This document shows positions 405 through 12,238 of a stretch of 16,324 nt of DNA, piece by piece. Under the pieces are notes generated by a model. That model ran no database searches. It had not been told where the DNA came from and was given only the letters and a program-made list of their open reading frames with translations. Where the stretch lies: positions 1-16,324 of the forward strand of contig JBGTJW010000684.1 in NCBI GenBank assembly GCA_041744955.1, written 5' to 3'. Positions within the stretch are counted from its first letter, which is position 1. Each line of letters opens with the position of its first letter. This DNA is from Stenomitos sp. (GTDB taxonomy: Bacteria; Cyanobacteriota; Cyanobacteriia; Leptolyngbyales; Leptolyngbyaceae). Made by a program: the position numbers and the translations under genes.

Positions 405-782
405 ATGAAATTAGCTTCTCTACTCACAGGCATGGCAATGGTTGGCTTGGTTACCGTTGGTGATGCGTCTTTCAAAGCGTTCAATCTTTCAAGCATTGGG
501 GTTGCTCATGCCGCAGAAACGAAGCAAGCAGGACCCACTGCTAAAGAGAAAATTGCTCTGATCACTAAAAACAAAGGACAAATTGGCAGTGGCGACCAAC
601 TCCGTCGCTTTTTCTACGGCGAACTAGACCCAGTTGGTATTCAGGTGGGTGGTGGTGGTCATGTTGTGAACCTGTACAACAAAACCAACGATGTCACTTT
701 TTCCTACTGTTCTCACTTTGATGTCGTGGTTGCCGTGAAAAAAGGAAAAGTGACGCAGTTTCTAGCCAGCGAAGTGAAATAG
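405..782 (+). CDS. small secreted hypothetical protein
   Basis: ATG is preceded by AGGAG (taattAGGAGtgactcATG). N-terminal signal peptide MKLASLLTGMAMVGLVTVG...VAHA/AE. No domain recognised. Confidence 0.6.
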   Translation: MKLASLLTGMAMVGLVTVGDASFKAFNLSSIGVAHAAETKQAGPTAKEKIALITKNKGQIGSGDQLRRFFYGELDPVGIQVGGGGHVVNLYNKTNDVTFSYCSHFDVVVAVKKGKVTQFLASEVK

Positions 783-919: not shown

Positions 920-1192
920 ATGAAAGCAAAGATGTTGTGTCTTGTGGCTAGTCTGGCAATAGCGGGTCTAGCGGCTTGTTCCAGTCCCCCCGCTGCTAAT
1001 CAGGCATCACCCAGCAGCGCTCCTGCCGCTAGCACCAGTCCAGATGCGATGAAAGGCGATGCCATGAAAGGTGACGCAATGCAAGGCGATGCGATGAAGG
1101 GTGACGCGATGAAAAAGGATGCTACTACGAAGGGTGACGCGATGAAGAAAGATGGTGACGCGATGAAGAAAGACGCACCGACAAAGCCATAG
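920..1192 (+). CDS. Met-rich MXKDX-type pentapeptide-repeat lipoprotein
   Basis: Signal peptide with lipobox (LAIAGLAAC/SS). The mature part carries seven [GP]DAM[KQ] units (PDAMK GDAMK GDAMQ GDAMK GDAMKK ... GDAMKK ... GDAMKK), giving 7 Met in roughly 70 mature residues. Confidence 0.8.
   Translation: MKAKMLCLVASLAIAGLAACSSPPAANQASPSSAPAASTSPDAMKGDAMKGDAMQGDAMKGDAMKKDATTKGDAMKKDGDAMKKDAPTKP
1040..1174 (+). repeat. in-frame degenerate 15-bp tandem repeat encoding the GDAMK units
   Basis: Successive units ccagatgcgatgaaa / ggcgatgccatgaaa / ggtgacgcaatgcaa / ggcgatgcgatgaag / ggtgacgcgatgaaa..., followed by two longer ggtgacgcgatgaagaaa units. Read directly from the sequence. Confidence 0.8.
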
Positions 1193-1362
1193 TCGATCGC
1201 GTCGTTGGGGTACACAACAGGTAATCAGTCTGTGCCCCGACTTAGTGCTTGGTTTCATGCCAATCAACTTGACTTTAGAGTGCGGCAGGGAGCATTGCTT
1301 GGACGTTCAGGAGCCAAGAGCCAGCAGTCGAGACCTTCTTATCACCGTTTGGAAGGATAGCA

Positions 1363-1989
1363 ATGGAAAAACTTTCGCAGAGCAAACGACGGCTGCTGCT
1401 CTATCTTGGTTTAGGAGTAGCAGGCGCAGGCGCAGCAACGGTCTTCGGCGCTGTTTCCCAAAAGGTAATCCCATCTGCATCGATCACCACCATTGATCCG
1501 TTACCTGCAAATAGTGCTGCGCCTCAAGCCGTCACGAAAAATAGTGCGATCGCTGCTAGTAAGGAACTACCAGACTTTCAGGGCATTGGTCAGTGGTTGA
1601 ATTCGGCTCCACTCACTGTGCGTGACCTTAAAGGCAGCGTCGTTTTAGTACAGTTTTGGACGTTTTCTTGCATCAACTGCCAGCGTACATTGCCTTCGAT
1701 CGTGCGATGGCATCAGCAGTACGCCGCCCAGGGGCTAAAGGTGATCGGTATCCACACGCCAGAATTTGCTTTTGAGCGTGATGCTAACAACGTCAAACAG
1801 GCGTTGCAAAAGCATCAAATTACTTACCCTGTACCGATCGACAACGACTTCAAAACCTGGAAAGCCTACAGCAATGAGTATTGGCCGCATCTCTTTCTAG
1901 CCGATCGTCAAGGGTTACTGCGCTACGACCACATTGGCGAAGGTGCATACGACACAACTGAGCAAACGATCCGCAGACTTTTGGGCTAA
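1363..1989 (+). CDS. exported thioredoxin-fold thiol:disulfide oxidoreductase (TlpA/ResA/DipZ-C-terminal-like)
   Basis: GGAAGGA lies just upstream of the ATG. The N-terminus SKRRLLLYLGLGVAGAGAA is a Tat-like RR motif or a signal anchor. CxxC motif FWTFSCINCQRTLP is followed by GIHTPEFAFE, YPVPIDND and YWPHLFLADRQG, typical of extracytoplasmic redoxins. Confidence 0.85.
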   Translation: MEKLSQSKRRLLLYLGLGVAGAGAATVFGAVSQKVIPSASITTIDPLPANSAAPQAVTKNSAIAASKELPDFQGIGQWLNSAPLTVRDLKGSVVLVQFWTFSCINCQRTLPSIVRWHQQYAAQGLKVIGIHTPEFAFERDANNVKQALQKHQITYPVPIDNDFKTWKAYSNEYWPHLFLADRQGLLRYDHIGEGAYDTTEQTIRRLLG

Positions 1990-2128
1990 TTAAACCTTTT
2001 GAGTTTTGCCTGCTGCTAAAAGCGGATTGAACAAGTTCCTTCACGTCCATTGACCACAGGAAACCCTCTGCACGGCTGCGGTCGGTCTTCAACCTTACTC
2101 TCTCGTTCCTAAGCGTTGCTGTTCAACC

Positions 2129-2818
2129 ATGAATGTTTCACTTTCAGCAGGGCTTGCCTTCCTGGGTGGTGTATTGACGGTACTTTCGCCCTGTGTCTTG
2201 CCTCTTTTGCCTGTGTTGGTGGGACGATCGCTTCAGTCTCATAAAGCGGGTCCGATCGCTCTGGTAATGGGGCTGGTCAGTGGTTTTGCAGTGATGGGCA
2301 GTTTACTTGGCTTTACCGCAAGCTGGTTTACCGGACTCGCTAATGCTTTGCGCTATGGGGCGATCGCGATCCTGTTAGCCTTAGGGCTGCTGGCAGTCTT
2401 CCCCAACTGGAGCTATCGGCTCTTCAACTATCTTCCTCTTAGCCGTTGGACAAAAGAACCCATGCGTCCTGGTCTGGTTGGTGAATTTTGGTTGGGCACG
2501 CAACTGGGTCTACTATGGACTCCCTGCGCGGGTCCTGTACTGGGTGGCATTCTAGTGTTAGCAGCCGTGCAGCATGATGTCATCAATGCGTTTGGTCTAC
2601 TGGTTGCCTACGGGATGGGTGCGGCGTTGCCCCTGCTCACGATCGCGTATGGTGGACGAGCCTGTAGCCAACGCTTGCTTGCACTTCATAGCCATAGTGC
2701 TACCTTGAGACGGGTCGGTGGTGTGATGATTGTAGTAACGGCGATCGCCATTTTGCTCGGCTGGGATATTCAGGTTCAGCTTTGGCTCTCGCCATTGTTT
2801 CCCCCTTTACCGCTTTAA
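2129..2818 (+). CDS. ccdA: CcdA/DsbD-family transmembrane thiol-disulfide electron transporter
   Basis: Polytopic membrane protein with the two hallmark membrane-embedded Cys motifs LSPCVLPLLP and WTPCAGPVLG. Confidence 0.85.
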   Translation: MNVSLSAGLAFLGGVLTVLSPCVLPLLPVLVGRSLQSHKAGPIALVMGLVSGFAVMGSLLGFTASWFTGLANALRYGAIAILLALGLLAVFPNWSYRLFNYLPLSRWTKEPMRPGLVGEFWLGTQLGLLWTPCAGPVLGGILVLAAVQHDVINAFGLLVAYGMGAALPLLTIAYGGRACSQRLLALHSHSATLRRVGGVMIVVTAIAILLGWDIQVQLWLSPLFPPLPL

Positions 2819-2848
2819 GTACAACTTCGTCACAGGACAGCACCACCC

Positions 2849-3574
2849 ATGTCAACGTCCATAACGCTTCTTTCCCGCTCCTTACGCAGATTGTCTATTC
2901 TGTCTCTAGTAGCGCTTGCCCTTATTGGCGGTGCGTTCTATCTCAGGTTGTCTCGATCGAGTGCTGAAACGCCACTGTCTATTGTGCAGGGAGCGTTTCC
3001 TGATCCGGCAGTCAATCTGCCAGCGACCCAGGCAAAGGGAATGCAGACTGCGGTTTTGGCAGGTGGTTGCTTCTGGGGCGTAGAGGCAGTGTTTGAACAT
3101 CTCAATGGCGTTTCAGATGTGGTCTCTGGCTATGCGGGCGGCAGTGCAGAGACAGCAAATTATGGGCTGGTCAGCTTTGGGCAAACGGGTCATGCCGAGT
3201 CTGTGAAAGTGACGTACGATCCCGCAAAGATTTCCTACGGACAGTTGCTCAAAGTCTACTTTGCGGTGGCGCATGACCCGACGCAGGTCAATCGGCAGGG
3301 TCCTGATGCCGGGAAACAATACCGTTCAGCTATCTTTTTTGAGAATGATGAACAGAAGCGAGTCGCGCAGGCATATGTCGATCAACTCAACCAGGCAGGC
3401 ACCTTCCGCAAGCCGATCGCCACTCAGCTAGCGCCGTTGAACGGTTTTTATGCGGCTGAAGCAAACCATCAGGACTTCATCGATCGCAATCCAAACCATC
3501 CCTATGTCGTGATTCATGACTTGCCAAAGCTCAAACAGCTCAAGGAACAGTTTGTCGCTCTTTACAAAAACTAA
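2849..3574 (+). CDS. msrA: peptide-methionine (S)-S-oxide reductase MsrA with an N-terminal export/anchor segment
   Basis: Catalytic motif GGCFWGVEAVF, then GYAGG, TGHAESVKVTYDP, HDPTQVNRQGPDAGKQYRSAIFF. A roughly 50-residue N-terminal extension holds the hydrophobic stretch LSILSLVALALIGGAFYL. The protein has only one Cys. The gene starts 30 nt after ccdA. Confidence 0.93.
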   Translation: MSTSITLLSRSLRRLSILSLVALALIGGAFYLRLSRSSAETPLSIVQGAFPDPAVNLPATQAKGMQTAVLAGGCFWGVEAVFEHLNGVSDVVSGYAGGSAETANYGLVSFGQTGHAESVKVTYDPAKISYGQLLKVYFAVAHDPTQVNRQGPDAGKQYRSAIFFENDEQKRVAQAYVDQLNQAGTFRKPIATQLAPLNGFYAAEANHQDFIDRNPNHPYVVIHDLPKLKQLKEQFVALYKN

Positions 3575-3595
3575 GTCTTCATTGGTCGCAGCTTT

Positions 3596-4198
3596 ATGGA
3601 AGCCTCTGTCCCTGCTAAACGTCAACCTAAAACACCCAGTCAGGCGATCGCGGCAAAAGCCTTTCACTGGATCAATCTTCTTAGCCTGCTGTTGATGATC
3701 ACCAGTGGGCTACGCATTTATAACGCAAACCCTGTGTTTGGCGGACGAGCAGGCTGGCATTTTCCACCGTTCCTCGTGATTGGTAACGGGTTAGCAGAAG
3801 GGCGAGACTGGCACTTCGCTATCATGTGGGTGTATGCGCTCAACCTCCTCTGCTACGGGCTTTATATTCTCATCACACGGCGCTGGCAGCATCGCTTTGC
3901 TAACAGCAATGATCTAAAAGCAGTGCAGGTCAGCCAAAACGAAAAGCGCAAAAATTATGCTCTGCATCGGTTAGTTTATACCGCGATCGTGCCCCTTTTG
4001 CTGTTGGCGATCGCCAGCGGTTTAGCGATGTACAAACCCGCTCAACTATACTGGCTAGCGGCACTTTTTGGCGATTGGCAAACTCTCCGCACGGTTCACT
4101 TCATCACAGTACCGATCGTGCTTCTCTTTACCTTTGTCCACTCGTTTCTTGCCCTCAGAGTCGGCACTTTTCGCCTTATTAAATCGATGTTTGTCTAA
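3596..4198 (+). CDS. 4-TM b-type cytochrome (b561/PhsC/HydC-like), probable quinol-oxidising membrane partner
   Basis: Four hydrophobic helices carry conserved His (FHW, WHF, LHRL, VHF..VHS). The gene starts 21 nt after msrA and ends 4 nt before the molybdoenzyme gene. The family call rests on topology and His pattern only. Confidence 0.7.
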   Translation: MEASVPAKRQPKTPSQAIAAKAFHWINLLSLLLMITSGLRIYNANPVFGGRAGWHFPPFLVIGNGLAEGRDWHFAIMWVYALNLLCYGLYILITRRWQHRFANSNDLKAVQVSQNEKRKNYALHRLVYTAIVPLLLLAIASGLAMYKPAQLYWLAALFGDWQTLRTVHFITVPIVLLFTFVHSFLALRVGTFRLIKSMFV

Positions 4199-4202
4199 AA
4201 AT

Positions 4203-4919
4203 ATGAACCTGATCCTCCCTAAACGCACGTCTCGCCGTCGGTTACTGCAATGGTCTGGTCTGTCTGGAGCGGGGCTGTTGTTGAATGGCTGCGCGTCGTC
4301 GCTGTTTGCAGAGCAGGTAGGGCAGCTTTCTGAGCCGTTAAACCAGAGCGTTGAAGCACTGATGCTGTCACAAAAAGCGGTGCCAGAATTTCCTGCGAAT
4401 GCGATCGATCCAGCGGAAAAACTCATCATCAATTCCTTTGACTTTGTGCCTAAGCTTGATCCCACCCAGTTTCGTTTGACGATCGATGGTGAGGTTGAGC
4501 GACCCCTGCAACTAAGCCTCAACGATCTACAGAAATTGCCGCTTACCACCATGAATGTTCGCCATGTTTGCGTTGAAGGCTGGGCGGCGATTGTGCAGTG
4601 GAATGGTGTGCGCTTACAGGAACTAGCGCTGTTGGCGCAGCCCAAAGCCGATGTTCGCTACGTCTATTTCAAATCTGCCGATGGTTACTACGAAAGCTGG
4701 GATCTTGCTTCTGCGGTGCATCCCCAAACGCTGATGGCATACCAGCGCAACGGGCAGCCGCTCTCAGTTGCGAACGGTGCGCCGCTGCGTCTCGCCTCAC
4801 CCATCAAACTGGGCTACAAGTTAAGTAAATGGGTGACTCAAATCACCTTTTTGAGCCAGTTAACGCCAATGAAAGGCTACTGGGAAGACCAGGGCTATGA
4901 ATGGTTTGCTGGACTTTAG
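4203..4919 (+). CDS. Tat-exported SUOX-fold molybdopterin oxidoreductase (YedY/MsrP-like, short form)
   Basis: Start placed at ATG 4203 (MNLILPKRTSRRRLLQWSGLSGAGLLLNGC), which gives a twin-arginine motif and a possible lipobox LNGC. The track start at 4068 overlaps the cytochrome b gene in another frame. RHVCVEGWAAIVQWNGVRL matches the Mo-ligand Cys region of sulfite-oxidase-fold enzymes, and GAPLRLASPIKLGYKLSKW is also typical. Length 238 aa. Confidence 0.85.
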   Translation: MNLILPKRTSRRRLLQWSGLSGAGLLLNGCASSLFAEQVGQLSEPLNQSVEALMLSQKAVPEFPANAIDPAEKLIINSFDFVPKLDPTQFRLTIDGEVERPLQLSLNDLQKLPLTTMNVRHVCVEGWAAIVQWNGVRLQELALLAQPKADVRYVYFKSADGYYESWDLASAVHPQTLMAYQRNGQPLSVANGAPLRLASPIKLGYKLSKWVTQITFLSQLTPMKGYWEDQGYEWFAGL

Positions 4920-9691: not shown

Positions 9692-10201
9692 ATGCGTGAT
9701 GCAGTGACGAGTTTGATTAGAAATTACGATATTACAGGTCGTTACCTCGATCGCAATGCTATTGATAGCCTCAAAGCGTATTTTGATACGGGTATTGCCA
9801 GAGTGCAGGCATCGGCAGTCATCAATGCGAATGCAGCGGCGATCGTCAAACAGGCAGGTTTGCAATTGTTTGACGAACTGCCAGAGTTGATTCGTCCCGG
9901 TGGCAATGCTTACACCACTCGTCGCTATGCCGCTTGCCTGCGCGATTTAGACTACTACCTGCGCTACGCGACCTACGCCCTTGTTGCAGGCGATACGGAT
10001 GTGTTGGATGAGCGGGTGCTAGAAGGGCTACGCGAAACCTACAATTCGCTGGGTGTACCATCTGGACCCACCGTACGCGGCATCCAAATCTTGAAGGCGA
10101 TCGCGCAAGAAACCGTCGCTGAAGCTGGCATCACCAACGCGGCGTTTATCGATCAACCGTTTGATTACATGGCGCGTGAATTGAGCGAGAAGAATATTTA
10201 G
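9692..10201 (+). CDS. apcF: allophycocyanin beta-18 subunit (phycobilisome core)
   Basis: 169 aa, collinear with ApcF as I remember it: MRDAVTSLIRNYDITGRYLDRNAIDSLKAYF, PELIRPGGNAYTTRRYAACLRDLDYYLRYATYALVAG, LRETYNSLGVP, QPFDYMARELSE. GGGAGAAGAG lies upstream of the ATG. Confidence 0.95.
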   Translation: MRDAVTSLIRNYDITGRYLDRNAIDSLKAYFDTGIARVQASAVINANAAAIVKQAGLQLFDELPELIRPGGNAYTTRRYAACLRDLDYYLRYATYALVAGDTDVLDERVLEGLRETYNSLGVPSGPTVRGIQILKAIAQETVAEAGITNAAFIDQPFDYMARELSEKNI

Positions 10202-10316: not shown

Positions 10317-11372
10317 TTAAATAACAGTATCAAGAAAAGTTAGCTGAGTTGGTGGTTTCACTCGACGTAAATGACTACAGCGACCAGTATTTTGATACTC
10401 TTGAATATCAACTAAAATCTTAGATGCTAATGCTCTACTAAAATTAACAGGAACAGCGTTTCCCACCATCTTATAGCCAGTGGAAATATTATCGTACTTA
10501 AGAATAAAGTCATCTGGAAACGTTTGTATCCTTGCACATTCTCGAACTGAAAGCCTGCGGTATGGCTTAGGAGAGCTTGGATCAAAAATTCGCTTATCTT
10601 GTTCAACAAAAATCATTTTATTGGCTTGAGGGTGAATCGGTGCATGCCGTCCGCCTGCCTGAATAGTAAACGAGGGTTCATCCCAACTTCTAACGCGATT
10701 TCTAGACATATAAATGCTAGAAAAACCCATATCTAAATACTCATGGTTAGCAACTAAAGCCGAATAATTTATTGCCTGCCGACTGGCAACAGGTTCTATA
10801 AGGCTTAAGTCATAAACAGTATCCCTCAAAGTTGGAATTTTGTGATTTTCTTGTGGGAAGCTAAAGGTGCCACCCATATCTTCTCTATAACCCACGATAA
10901 TAACTCTTTGTCTATCCTGAGGTACATTAAAATACTTAGCATTCAGTAGTTTATAAGCTACTTCATAACCTGCATCTTTAAACATATATAGAATATTAGA
11001 AAAAGCATAAGTATGCCTCTCTGAAAGAATACCGCTTACATTTTCAGCTACAAAAAATAGAGGTTTTTTTGCTTGTACAATTCTGATGTATTCATAGAAA
11101 AGTTGCCCTCTAGAATCATTAATGCCTCGCCCAGCGCCTGCCTCGCTCCAGCTTTGGCAGGGCGGTCCGCCGATAATGCCAATGCAATTAGGTATTTCTG
11201 ATGATGGAATGTCTTGTATCGCTCTTCTATCTAGTGTCGTTTCGGTATGATTAAGCTCATAAGTTTCCCAAATTGATTTATCGTTTTCATTTGCCCAATC
11301 GACCTGAAAACCTGCTAGAGAAAAGCCTAAATCTAGACCACCACAACCAGAAAATAAAGATACAACATTCAT
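10317..11372 (-). CDS. type II DNA (cytosine-5)-methyltransferase, M.HaeIII-like (predicted GGCC)
   Basis: C5-MTase motifs in canonical order: I FSGCGGLDLGF, IV GGPPCQSWS, VI FFVAENVSG, VIII QDRQRVIIVG, X GNAVPV. The variable region and flanks (NHEY..SSIYMSRNRVRSWDEPSFTIQAGGRHAPIHPQA, YRRLSVRECARIQTFPDDF) are collinear with my recollection of M.HaeIII. Specificity is inferred, not proven. Confidence 0.93.
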   Translation of the reverse strand: MNVVSLFSGCGGLDLGFSLAGFQVDWANENDKSIWETYELNHTETTLDRRAIQDIPSSEIPNCIGIIGGPPCQSWSEAGAGRGINDSRGQLFYEYIRIVQAKKPLFFVAENVSGILSERHTYAFSNILYMFKDAGYEVAYKLLNAKYFNVPQDRQRVIIVGYREDMGGTFSFPQENHKIPTLRDTVYDLSLIEPVASRQAINYSALVANHEYLDMGFSSIYMSRNRVRSWDEPSFTIQAGGRHAPIHPQANKMIFVEQDKRIFDPSSPKPYRRLSVRECARIQTFPDDFILKYDNISTGYKMVGNAVPVNFSRALASKILVDIQEYQNTGRCSHLRRVKPPTQLTFLDTVI

Positions 11373-11389
11373 AACGTGAGAAAACTAAC

Positions 11390-12238
11390 CTATCTTCTAT
11401 AGCTAATCATTTTTGCGGGAAGAATTTCAACCGGATTATTAGGCGATTTAATTGTGATGCTCTGAATATTAAAGCCTGGTAAAGTTATATTCTCGATCGC
11501 TTTCCTACTTTCTTCTGCAAAGGAAGCATATTTGCTCTCTTTCATTAAAGCAATAATTTGAAAATTTGCATTAGGAGTGTACCCAGAGTCTACATAACTA
11601 AAAGCTCTAGCAGGATTTTCAATGCCCCACATCCCTCTGATTCTTAAATAGGTTATGCCTAAAGGATCTACCTTATTCACTCTACCTAGCTCTTTCGTTA
11701 CGGTGAACTCGACTCCTTGAATTTCAGCAATTCCATTGATTAAGCCATTTCTAGTCTTCTCATAAATTTCTTTGTCTGCGGCATAGCAGTCACCGTAAAT
11801 TAGCCACAGAAGCTTTAACTTTTTTTGATTGATGATGCCGATCGCATAAATAATATCTTTTTCCGTCCAAGCCTCACAATTTCGGCAGGCGCTAATGAGC
11901 ATTGGATTATCAGAAAATAGCTTTGCTTTTGGGTAAGAGCTATTGAGCGCAATTTGAGAGCCGTACGATTCAATTTTCTTTACTTCTACTGCGTCGCCGC
12001 TTTTGATCATTAGATCGGGCGGGTTATTTTGGTTGCCAGCGTATGAAAAGACTTCGGAATACTTCAAAAGTCTCTCATTTTCATCACCTGCGTTCACGGT
12101 GCCTGCAAAAGCATCTTTAATGAAAACTTCAAGGGCATCACCTACACCATTAATTCTATTTTTCCCTTTATAGTGGCTAACTAAATCTGAAATTGGATTG
12201 TGAACAATATTTTGTATAGCTTCTAGGAGATTGCTCAT
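11390..12238 (-). CDS. type II restriction endonuclease, R.NgoPII-like (predicted GGCC)
   Basis: Ends 17 nt upstream of the methyltransferase gene on the same strand. PD-(D/E)XK core NPPDLMIKSGDAVEVKK. Blocks ALNSSYPKAKL, EKDIIYAIGI and ELGRVNKVDPLGITYLRIRGMWGIENP match my memory of the NgoPII family, as does the size (282 aa). The assignment is from memory, not a search. Confidence 0.8.
   Translation of the reverse strand: MSNLLEAIQNIVHNPISDLVSHYKGKNRINGVGDALEVFIKDAFAGTVNAGDENERLLKYSEVFSYAGNQNNPPDLMIKSGDAVEVKKIESYGSQIALNSSYPKAKLFSDNPMLISACRNCEAWTEKDIIYAIGIINQKKLKLLWLIYGDCYAADKEIYEKTRNGLINGIAEIQGVEFTVTKELGRVNKVDPLGITYLRIRGMWGIENPARAFSYVDSGYTPNANFQIIALMKESKYASFAEESRKAIENITLPGFNIQSITIKSPNNPVEILPAKMISYRR

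Follow-up and report, generated by a model that had tools for sequence, protein, structure and literature searches.

A candidate methionine-oxidation defence cluster in Stenomitos that groups a Met-rich lipoprotein with thiol-dependent and molybdenum-dependent arms

Repair of oxidised methionine (Met) outside the cytoplasm is known as two separate routes, a thiol route (CcdA/DsbD, thioredoxin (Trx), MsrA/B) and a quinol-molybdenum route (MsrPQ-like), the latter sometimes accompanied by a sacrificial Met-rich peptide. Six consecutive genes in a cyanobacterial contig raise the question of whether both routes and such a peptide can belong to a single system. The genes lie in a 16,324-nt stretch of DNA from Stenomitos sp. 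(assembly GCA_041744955.1, contig JBGTJW010000684.1, forward strand), which is referred to here as the window. An earlier interpretation made from the letters of the DNA (the sequence-only reading) had proposed an extracytoplasmic methionine-oxidation defence module. Comparative genomics supports this proposal with the corrections given below, and we consider it probable (roughly 65%) that the cluster is an accessory, operon-like module against extracytoplasmic methionine oxidation, acting in the periplasm or in the thylakoid lumen.

The six plus-strand genes encode, in order, a Met-rich protein, a Trx-like protein, CcdA, MsrA, a cytochrome b and a molybdenum (Mo) enzyme (Table 1), and are separated by gaps of 170, 139, 30, 21 and 4 nt. 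Coordinates follow the list of open reading frames (ORFs) with one corrected start: the mechanical list begins the Mo-enzyme ORF at a TTG at 4068, and the ATG at 4203 was preferred because the homologues all begin M[NS]LILPKR. The number of genes and the gaps given in the sequence-only reading are borne out by this list. Pfam and NCBIfam searches agreed with its family calls for the Trx-like protein, CcdA, MsrA, cytochrome b and Mo enzyme, and the N-terminal anchor of MsrA, the four transmembrane segments of the cytochrome and the twin-arginine motif of the Mo enzyme were seen in hydropathy profiles and motifs. The host is cyanobacterial: the Mo enzyme and its counterpart in Stenomitos frigidus ULC029 share 94% identity, the PHP, DUF455 and GlnA genes downstream of the cluster are syntenic with that strain, and the window contains a phycobiliprotein gene at 9692-10201.

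Table 1. Positions and supporting evidence for the six cluster genes, the repeat within the first of them and the upstream gene up125.
Feature	Coordinates	Strand	Evidence
Met-rich lipoprotein, MrpX/BcrX-like, putative sacrificial methionine sink	920..1192	+	Lipobox LAAC, seven DAM[K/Q] pentapeptide units
Exported/anchored thioredoxin-fold protein, CINC active site, DipZ/SOQ1 type	1363..1989	+	Pfam AhpC-TSA/Redoxin/Thioredoxin_8
CcdA-type transmembrane thiol-disulfide electron transporter	2129..2818	+	PF02683 DsbD_TM 49.4 bits (cut-off 27.1)
Membrane-anchored one-cysteine MsrA (GCFWG)	2849..3574	+	PMSR 196.6 bits; TIGR00401 174.4 bits (cut-off 108.1)
Four-helix b-type cytochrome, proposed quinol-oxidising donor to the Mo enzyme	3596..4198	+	Ni_hydr_CYTB PF01292 60.8 bits, four hydrophobic segments
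Tat-exported, probably lipid-anchored single-domain SUOX-fold molybdoenzyme, YedY/MsrP branch	4203..4919	+	PF00174 Oxidored_molyb 120 bits
Tandem DNA repeat encoding GDAMK units	1043..1173	.	Period 15/30/21 nt, Tandem Repeats Finder
up125, conserved 125-aa exported protein, possible accessory member	405..782	+	No Pfam/NCBIfam match

The last two genes of the cluster have an experimentally studied counterpart in uropathogenic Escherichia coli (UPEC). Over their full lengths, the window Mo enzyme and cytochrome b match a Mo subunit (33% identity, E-value 3e-42) and a cytochrome b (30% identity, E-value 4e-20) of UPEC 536. The UPEC pair is flanked by a divergent histidine kinase-response regulator (HK-RR) system and by hlyCABD, is accompanied by an 80-aa MxKDx protein, and is the c3566-c3568 operon of PMC8550376. 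OrhKR activates this operon on exposure to H2O2, and both resistance to H2O2 and survival in macrophages require it (PMC8550376); Melnyk et al. had earlier noted it as 'yedYZ-mrpX' (PMC4436054). In Brucella melitensis, bcrXQP encodes the MXKDX Met-rich protein BcrX together with BcrQP, is induced by HOCl under control of an extracytoplasmic function (ECF) sigma factor and confers HOCl resistance (PMC8315932). MrpX of Azospira is rapidly oxidised by hypochlorite and returns to its reduced form over time in vivo (PMC4436054).

With adjacent PF01292 and PF00174 genes (4-nt gap) homologous to the UPEC pair, and an exported MxKDx-type small protein in the same cluster, the window holds a cyanobacterial member of this known kind of Met-rich/cytochrome b/Mo triad. 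The UPEC operon, Brucella bcrXQP and Azospira suillum mrpX-yedY1Z1 share with it an exported MxKDx-type Met-rich protein, a membrane cytochrome and a Mo enzyme of the SUOX (sulfite oxidase) fold exported by twin-arginine translocation (Tat). The UPEC cytochrome belongs to PF01292, as in the window, and the X-Q-P order of the Brucella operon is the Met-rich-cytochrome b-Mo order of two Nostoc loci (L064 and L077; loci are given L numbers). The window differs from the proteobacterial triads in that its Met-rich protein is a lipoprotein with ~10% Met, with Trx-CcdA(-MsrA) lying between it and the cytochrome b/Mo pair, and in that its cyanobacterial host offers the lumen as a second possible destination. 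A further difference is regulatory: the triads go with OrhKR in UPEC, BcrS/AbcS in Brucella and SigF/NrsF in Azospira, whereas neither an OrhKR-type two-component system nor a SigF/NrsF-type ECF sigma/anti-sigma pair was found in the window or in close cyanobacterial loci.

A Mo-ligand context of C-V-E-x-W, a single Mo domain and a twin-arginine signal place the Mo enzyme in the YedY/MsrP branch. At its N-terminus the twin-arginine motif SRRRLL is followed by LNGC, which contains the lipobox cysteine (Cys30), and the C-terminus typical of the family is GYWEDQGYEWF. The Mo ligand Cys123 lies in RHVCVEGW, which aligns to RMRCVEAW of YedY; sulfite oxidases have C-[AS]-G-N at this motif. E. coli YedY was the best match in the PDB (1xdq, E-value 3.7e-17). 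MsrP also gave the highest NCBIfam score (NF003767, 92.5 bits, cut-off 207), ahead of SorA (NF052245, 57.5 bits, cut-off 600) and SoxC (TIGR04555, 55 bits, cut-off 420). Pfam detected PF00174 alone and no Mo-co dimerisation domain. The scores far under the cut-offs and the missing dimerisation domain speak against assignment to the sulfite dehydrogenase/oxidase class (SorA, SoxC); the expectation of the sequence-only reading that the enzyme is not sulfite-dehydrogenase-like thus appears to hold. An AlphaFold2 model built from 33 sequences that were at least 74% identical (mean pLDDT 51) was of too low quality for a fold search and was set aside, and exact-sequence look-up of the window Mo enzyme and of P0220 returned no record.

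The resemblance to E. coli MsrPQ (YedYZ) extends to a Tat-exported PF00174 catalytic subunit, the same Cys-Val-Glu at the Mo ligand and a common logic in which electrons pass from quinol through a membrane haem protein to a periplasmic Mo enzyme. The window Mo enzyme is, however, ~90 residues shorter, has a lipobox and lacks the C-terminal extension of MsrP, and the membrane partners differ: that of the window is a PF01292 protein, that of E. coli is MsrQ (PF01794), and the two have no sequence similarity. A BLASTP comparison of the window cytochrome b with E. coli MsrQ found nothing, and we do not regard the two as homologues. In a seven-sequence alignment of the cytochrome b, His24, His168 and His182 were invariant and His73 of the WHF motif was present in all except the Streptomyces sequence. 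The MsrPQ-like arm proposed from sequence therefore stands for the Mo enzyme, which is nearest to MsrP/YedY and homologous to the UPEC Mo subunit, but not for the cytochrome. Because the MsrP equivalog test failed and the partner is not MsrQ, we file the system with the UPEC C3566/C3567 type and not with MsrPQ.

PF01292/PF00174 pairs are widespread (Rhizobium, Methylobacterium, Burkholderia, Streptomyces, E. coli) and are annotated as 'cytochrome b/b6 domain-containing protein' and 'molybdopterin-binding protein' or 'molybdopterin-dependent oxidoreductase'. Outside Streptomyces, the twin-arginine signal of the Mo subunit precedes a lipobox cysteine, so that the subunit is probably a Tat-exported lipoprotein. 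In the UPEC operon and the related loci examined, the MsrP-like enzyme was paired with a PF01292 cytochrome b and not with MsrQ. We found no paper that treats YedY together with cytochrome b561. The sole, passing cyanobacterial mention found in the literature is of a Limnospira MsrP-like gene without a recognisable MsrQ, an observation that fits a partner other than MsrQ, for instance the PF01292 cytochrome b of the cyanobacterial clusters.

Met-rich exported ORFs lie beside the PF01292/PF00174 pair in Methylobacterium, in Burkholderia (where NrsF is also present) and on E. coli plasmids. We surveyed the proteobacterial type in 80 metagenome loci anchored on a Burkholderia-type Mo enzyme. Where the sequence reached far enough upstream, the cytochrome b gene almost always directly preceded the Mo gene, and half of the loci (40/80) had an exported Met-rich ORF within 1.5 kb on the same strand. 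Such ORFs made up 40 of the 460 small ORFs nearby as opposed to 2 of 1154 distant ones. In about eight of the 80 loci the triad was adjoined by MsrA or MsrB: MsrA followed it in seven (L102, L105, L106, L115, L124, L126 and L176) and preceded it in L108, MsrB was also present in L105 and L124, and CcdA in L106 and L107. MsrA, MsrB, CcdA and Trx are thus repeated companions of the cytochrome b/Mo pair. On two Rhizobium plasmids, a conserved 208-aa exported protein precedes the cytochrome b/Mo pair in place of the Met-rich peptide (L081:3292-3918 and L083:3287-3910), and in one of these loci a DoxX gene follows the pair.

This recurrent company of Met-rich exported ORFs and MsrA or MsrB in many lineages, together with the oxidant resistance conferred by the UPEC and Brucella operons, speaks against an alternative in which the Mo enzyme is a sulfite dehydrogenase or another S-/N-oxide reductase and the cytochrome b/Mo pair serves sulfur or small-molecule metabolism. 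Such a role would accord with the SUOX fold, with the weak SorA and SoxC hits, with a score well short of the MsrP equivalog cut-off and with the first description of E. coli YedY as a weak S-/N-oxide reductase (PMC13488963). It fits poorly with MsrP/YedY as the top match in both NCBIfam and the PDB, with a Mo-ligand motif (C-V-E-G-W) like that of YedY, and with the lack of both a dimerisation domain and a cytochrome c partner. We regard this alternative as very unlikely and retain a methionine sulfoxide reductase as the predicted activity.

The predicted substrate of this activity nearest at hand is the Met-rich lipoprotein. The sequence-only reading had counted seven GDAMK units in it; there are seven DAM units, of which only five are GDAMK, the others being PDAMK and GDAMQ. 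The mature part contains 9.9% Met and 30% charged residues. It scored 38.3 bits (E-value 1e-9) against the model for penta-MxKDx proteins (TIGR02953, cut-off 41), the repeat here being G-D-A-M-K, and the small protein of the UPEC operon scored similarly (35.2 bits). Orthologues retain the lipobox and the composition while the repeat number varies, giving 4 to 15 Met.

Met-rich motifs are typical Cu(I) ligands, and the cluster could in principle serve copper or metal handling, with Cu(I) bound by the Met-rich protein and Trx/CcdA keeping metallochaperone cysteines reduced in the manner of TlpA-Sco. The repeats, however, have no His and no MxM or MxxM spacing, and no gene for a copper chaperone, multicopper oxidase or CopC/CopD was present in the window or in the cyanobacterial loci. 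Metal genes do occur near some proteobacterial loci (CueR and a P-type ATPase in L083, a cation diffusion facilitator (CDF) transporter and SCO-TlpA-CcdA in L086), and E. coli MsrPQ has been linked to copper stress and CusF repair (PMC9302797); the recurrent neighbours are nevertheless MsrA and MsrB, the oxidant shown to act on MrpX is hypochlorite, and HOCl or H2O2 elicits the response of the Brucella and UPEC operons. The missing copper genes, the repeat composition and the Msr neighbours led us to reject metal handling as the main explanation, and we see only the slightest chance that it is correct. We accordingly continue to treat the lipoprotein as a putative methionine sink.

A second arm is suggested by the Trx-like protein and CcdA. 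The Trx-like protein has one N-terminal hydrophobic segment and carries Cys103 and Cys106 in WTFSCINC. Its best PDB match was the C-terminal domain of Mycobacterium tuberculosis DipZ (2hyx, E-value 4e-43), followed by the lumenal Trx-like domain of plant SOQ1 (7djj, 9e-23), NHLRC2 and YkuV; Etrx structures were weak matches (2yp6 and 4hqz, 1.6-1.8e-7). ResA reached an E-value of only 1e-9 in the PDB and 58.7 bits in NCBIfam (cut-off 170). By these matches we class the protein as DipZ/SOQ1 type and not as ResA/CcsX type. CcdA has several hydrophobic segments and conserved cysteines in SPCVLP (Cys22) and TPCAGP (Cys133). DipZ consists of a CcdA-like membrane domain fused to a Trx-like domain, with a carbohydrate-binding-like domain in addition. 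The Trx/CcdA gene pair resembles a split DipZ since DipZ fuses both domains, although the carbohydrate-binding-like domain is missing from the window protein.

DipZ and SOQ1 are the closest solved relatives of the window Trx-like protein, and SOQ1 has the same C-I-N-C, within an active-site motif given as CCINC (preprint 10.1101/2024.11.01.621559). Within the thylakoid lumen, this domain of SOQ1 hands electrons on to a domain with Msr activity, CcdA being the proposed donor (preprint 10.1101/2024.11.01.621559). The same Trx-to-Msr logic with a CcdA donor appears in the window as three adjacent genes, and the locus thus points to a bacterial relative of the SOQ1 Trx-like domain adjoining CcdA and an Msr. 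Unlike in SOQ1, the NHL and C-terminal domains are missing from the window protein, and the acceptor proposed here is a canonical MsrA.

This MsrA has one N-terminal transmembrane segment and a sole cysteine (Cys74 in GGCFWGVE). It has no resolving cysteine and hence is not of the two- or three-cysteine type recycled by thioredoxin. The order CcdA/DsbD, extracytoplasmic thioredoxin-fold protein, exported or anchored Msr is shared with CcdA-Etrx-MsrAB2 of Streptococcus pneumoniae, PilB/DsbD of Neisseria, and MsrAB with CcdA in Haemophilus influenzae and Fusobacterium (PMC13488963). The window differs from these thiol-driven surface systems in its single-domain, one-cysteine MsrA with no MsrB fused or adjacent, in a Trx-like protein of DipZ/SOQ1 type and not of Etrx or PilB type, and in being embedded in a Mo-enzyme operon. 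The anchored MsrA subfamily is widespread among cyanobacteria and also occurs at unrelated loci (L092 and L093). In Leptolyngbya sp. AN03gr2 (L093:5228-6753) a chlorite dismutase gene is divergent from the anchored MsrA and links the subfamily to reactive chlorine stress. In a locus of an Oscillatoriophycideae genome (L089:4609-8862), a different, 128-aa Met-rich exported protein with GDAMSGSAMSG repeats comes first; after it come an MsrB that is exported, the anchored MsrA and the two genes of an HK-RR system, with no Mo enzyme. Both contexts point to oxidant stress.

How firmly the parts belong together was judged from 80 species-level cyanobacterial genome loci anchored on the Mo enzyme, in which the other genes were located by tblastn and ORF analysis. 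The order Met-rich-Trx-CcdA-cytochrome b-Mo was found in about 27 of them, spread over several orders (Nostocales, Leptolyngbyales and others), and in four contig-limited loci; genera with this five-gene version include Nostoc, Phormidesmis, Cyanomargarita and Microcoleus, as well as a Kovacikia metagenome-assembled genome (MAG). All six genes were present in three loci (Stenomitos, Leptolyngbya) besides the window, and in two more that are contig-limited (L005 and L048). The reduced versions comprised Met-rich-cytochrome b-Mo (the two Nostoc loci L064 and L077), cytochrome b-Mo only (L054 and L058), the Mo gene with a cytochrome b remnant of varying length (16 loci) and the Mo gene alone, directly after rplU-rpmA (16 loci). 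The six-gene neighbourhood expected to be conserved is therefore so in part: the conserved cyanobacterial core is five genes, and MsrA is a lineage-specific member found in Stenomitos, Leptolyngbya and Kovacikia relatives.

Several of these loci record erosion of the cluster. In S. frigidus ULC029 (L001), the closest relative of the window, the Met-rich gene, the Trx gene and most of ccdA have been removed by a deletion ~1.3-1.7 kb upstream of the Mo gene; MsrA-cytochrome b-Mo are kept, and up125 is left beside the ccdA remnant. Another decayed copy, on a metagenome contig (L091), has its CcdA and cytochrome b genes truncated. On a 1.2-Mb plasmid of Kovacikia minuta CCNUW1 (L088:4224-8080), which is not one of the 80 loci, all six genes are present, with a frameshifted Trx gene and insertion sequence (IS) elements nearby; the cluster of the Kovacikia MAG (L080) consists of five genes, MsrA not among them. 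The two together suggest mobility and that MsrA was gained or lost recently in this genus. Nostoc loci (L007-L077) form a deletion series downstream of rplU-rpmA that runs from five genes through Met-rich-cytochrome b-Mo and cytochrome b remnants to the Mo gene alone. The cytochrome b remnants differ in length, which argues that the Nostoc losses were independent. Where the Mo gene stands alone it has stayed intact and is under purifying selection (median ratio of nonsynonymous to synonymous substitution rates (dN/dS) 0.089 vs 0.113 in five-gene loci). The cluster is thus co-conserved yet modular and dispensable, as expected of an accessory module and not of a housekeeping one.

The same losses bear on the fear, voiced with the sequence-only reading, that Trx and CcdA are the housekeeping CcsX/CcdA pair of cytochrome c maturation. 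The pair is deleted in S. frigidus ULC029, its Trx gene is frameshifted on the Kovacikia plasmid and its CcdA is truncated in L091; since it is lost or broken in close relatives, and since the family assignment favours DipZ (E-value 4e-43) over ResA (1e-9), we rejected the housekeeping role on these two grounds.

Broader than this is the possibility that the genes are juxtaposed loosely or by chance, so that Trx/CcdA would be a general envelope thiol-reducing or cytochrome c maturation pair, MsrA would stand alone and only the Met-rich/cytochrome b/Mo triad would work together. The reduced loci with three, two or one gene and the anchored MsrA of L092 and L093 show that the modules also occur separately; most cyanobacterial clusters are without MsrA, and the 170-nt and 139-nt gaps could house separate promoters. 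Set against this are the five-gene order common to Nostocales, Leptolyngbyales and others, a Trx-like protein that is of DipZ/SOQ1 type and scores under the ResA cut-off, disruptions of the Trx/CcdA pair that are incompatible with essential cytochrome c maturation, and a re-clustering of the same six families in another order on a proteobacterial-type contig.

This GC-rich contig (L106:2123-6967) is the single metagenome locus with all six families, in the order DUF1223-cytochrome b-Mo-Met-rich-MsrA-CcdA-Trx(CINC), the families being Pfam-confirmed. Identities to the window proteins were 49% for Trx, 35% for CcdA, 56% for MsrA, 31% for cytochrome b and 38% for the Mo enzyme, and the MsrA is a one-cysteine lipoprotein. 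Given its CSSCPP motif, the DUF1223 protein may be an additional member with a thiol-redox role. Because two lineages hold the same six families in different orders, functional coupling is a better account than inherited adjacency. We therefore judge loose juxtaposition unlikely and favour a module in which the parts act together.

We propose that oxidants (hypochlorite, peroxide or similar) would oxidise exposed methionines of the lipid-anchored Met-rich sink and of other envelope proteins, and that two reduction routes would regenerate the sink and the other damaged proteins. In the conserved route, electrons would pass from the quinol pool through a di-haem PF01292 cytochrome b to the lipid-anchored Mo enzyme, which would reduce methionine sulfoxide. 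In the second route, they would pass from cytoplasmic thioredoxin through CcdA to the CINC Trx-like protein on the outer face of the membrane, and in the Stenomitos/Leptolyngbya lineage this protein would recycle the sulfenic acid of the anchored one-cysteine MsrA. In clusters without MsrA, Trx/CcdA may support an Msr whose gene lies at another locus, or may mend cysteines that have been oxidised. MsrA would handle the S-sulfoxide only, and the Mo enzyme may take both epimers, as is reported for MsrP (bioRxiv 243626); the absence of MsrB would be explained if the Mo enzyme does so. We observed the gene order, the families, the export signals, the homology with the UPEC operon and the repeated co-clustering; we infer from them the activities, the electron paths, the stereochemical split, the co-transcription, the inducers and the compartment.

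Several points weigh against this proposal. The Mo enzyme falls under the MsrP equivalog cut-off, as does its UPEC homologue (73.4 bits), and the methionine sulfoxide reductase role of the subfamily is predicted from homology. MsrA is missing from most cyanobacterial versions of the cluster, and the repeated loss of upstream genes in Nostoc with the Mo gene kept intact means that the Mo enzyme has no strict need of adjacent partners. Azospira MrpX, with 20% Met, is twice as rich in this residue as the window lipoprotein. Neither a two-component system nor an ECF sigma factor adjoins the cluster in the window as a regulator, and co-transcription over the 170-nt and 139-nt gaps is presumed. A scan for promoters and terminators gave hits at or below shuffled expectation and none within the intergenic gaps; Rfam at E <= 1 gave no match over the window, hence no Mo-cofactor (Moco) or other riboswitch; and eight loci aligned upstream of the Met-rich gene had nothing in common beyond the Shine-Dalgarno region and similarity at the level of clades, and no regulator site stood out clearly. 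Three outcomes had been named in advance as counting against the sequence-only reading, namely that the genes are not kept together in related genomes, that the Mo enzyme lacks sulfoxide reductase activity, for example as a sulfite dehydrogenase, and that Trx and CcdA are a housekeeping pair; none was supported by the sequence-level tests run, the Mo-enzyme question being judged on sequence.

A bolder version of the proposal places the module in the thylakoid lumen, where a two-channel quenching cycle (NADPH-thiol and quinol-molybdenum) would turn around the lipid-anchored Met-rich protein near photosystem II and the CcdA-fed CINC protein would be a prokaryotic counterpart to SOQ1 and its lumenal methionine-redox system in plants. 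We offer it as a long shot.

The sequence-only reading had also held the combination to be undescribed. In our literature search only separate parts were described, and we found no account of a locus that unites a Met-rich sink with both a CcdA/Trx/MsrA route and a cytochrome b/Mo route. That much of the claim survives, but all parts are known modules, the triad is already experimental in Proteobacteria, and the combination, which appears undescribed, is not confined to cyanobacteria (L106 and related loci). The presence of both routes and a sink in one cluster suggests that they cooperate on a shared substrate, through a split of R- and S-sulfoxides or through two electron sources, and makes the cluster a concrete, testable candidate for methionine repair in the cyanobacterial envelope or lumen.

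Upstream of the cluster, up125 is a possible accessory member. It has 632 homologues (E <= 0.001) among cyanobacteria, in which Cys102 is invariant, and lies directly 5' of the cluster in L001-L004, L078, L079 and L091; in strain JSC-12 it adjoins an MsrA fragment. In the up125 protein of L079, encoded ~3.8 kb upstream of the Mo gene, the signal peptide is followed by four GDSMSKP Met repeats, which hints at a fusion tying up125 to the Met-rich function. A Foldseek search of the PDB with the core of an AlphaFold2 model of up125 (pLDDT 70-90) found nothing significant (best E-value 0.28).

Elsewhere in the window, a restriction-modification pair is encoded on the minus strand at 10317-12238 and consists of a 351-aa C-5 cytosine DNA methyltransferase and a 282-aa restriction endonuclease of NgoPII type. 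The pair sits between the phycobiliprotein gene and mnmG in an island of low GC content (0.38-0.41 vs ~0.51 elsewhere) that was probably acquired horizontally.

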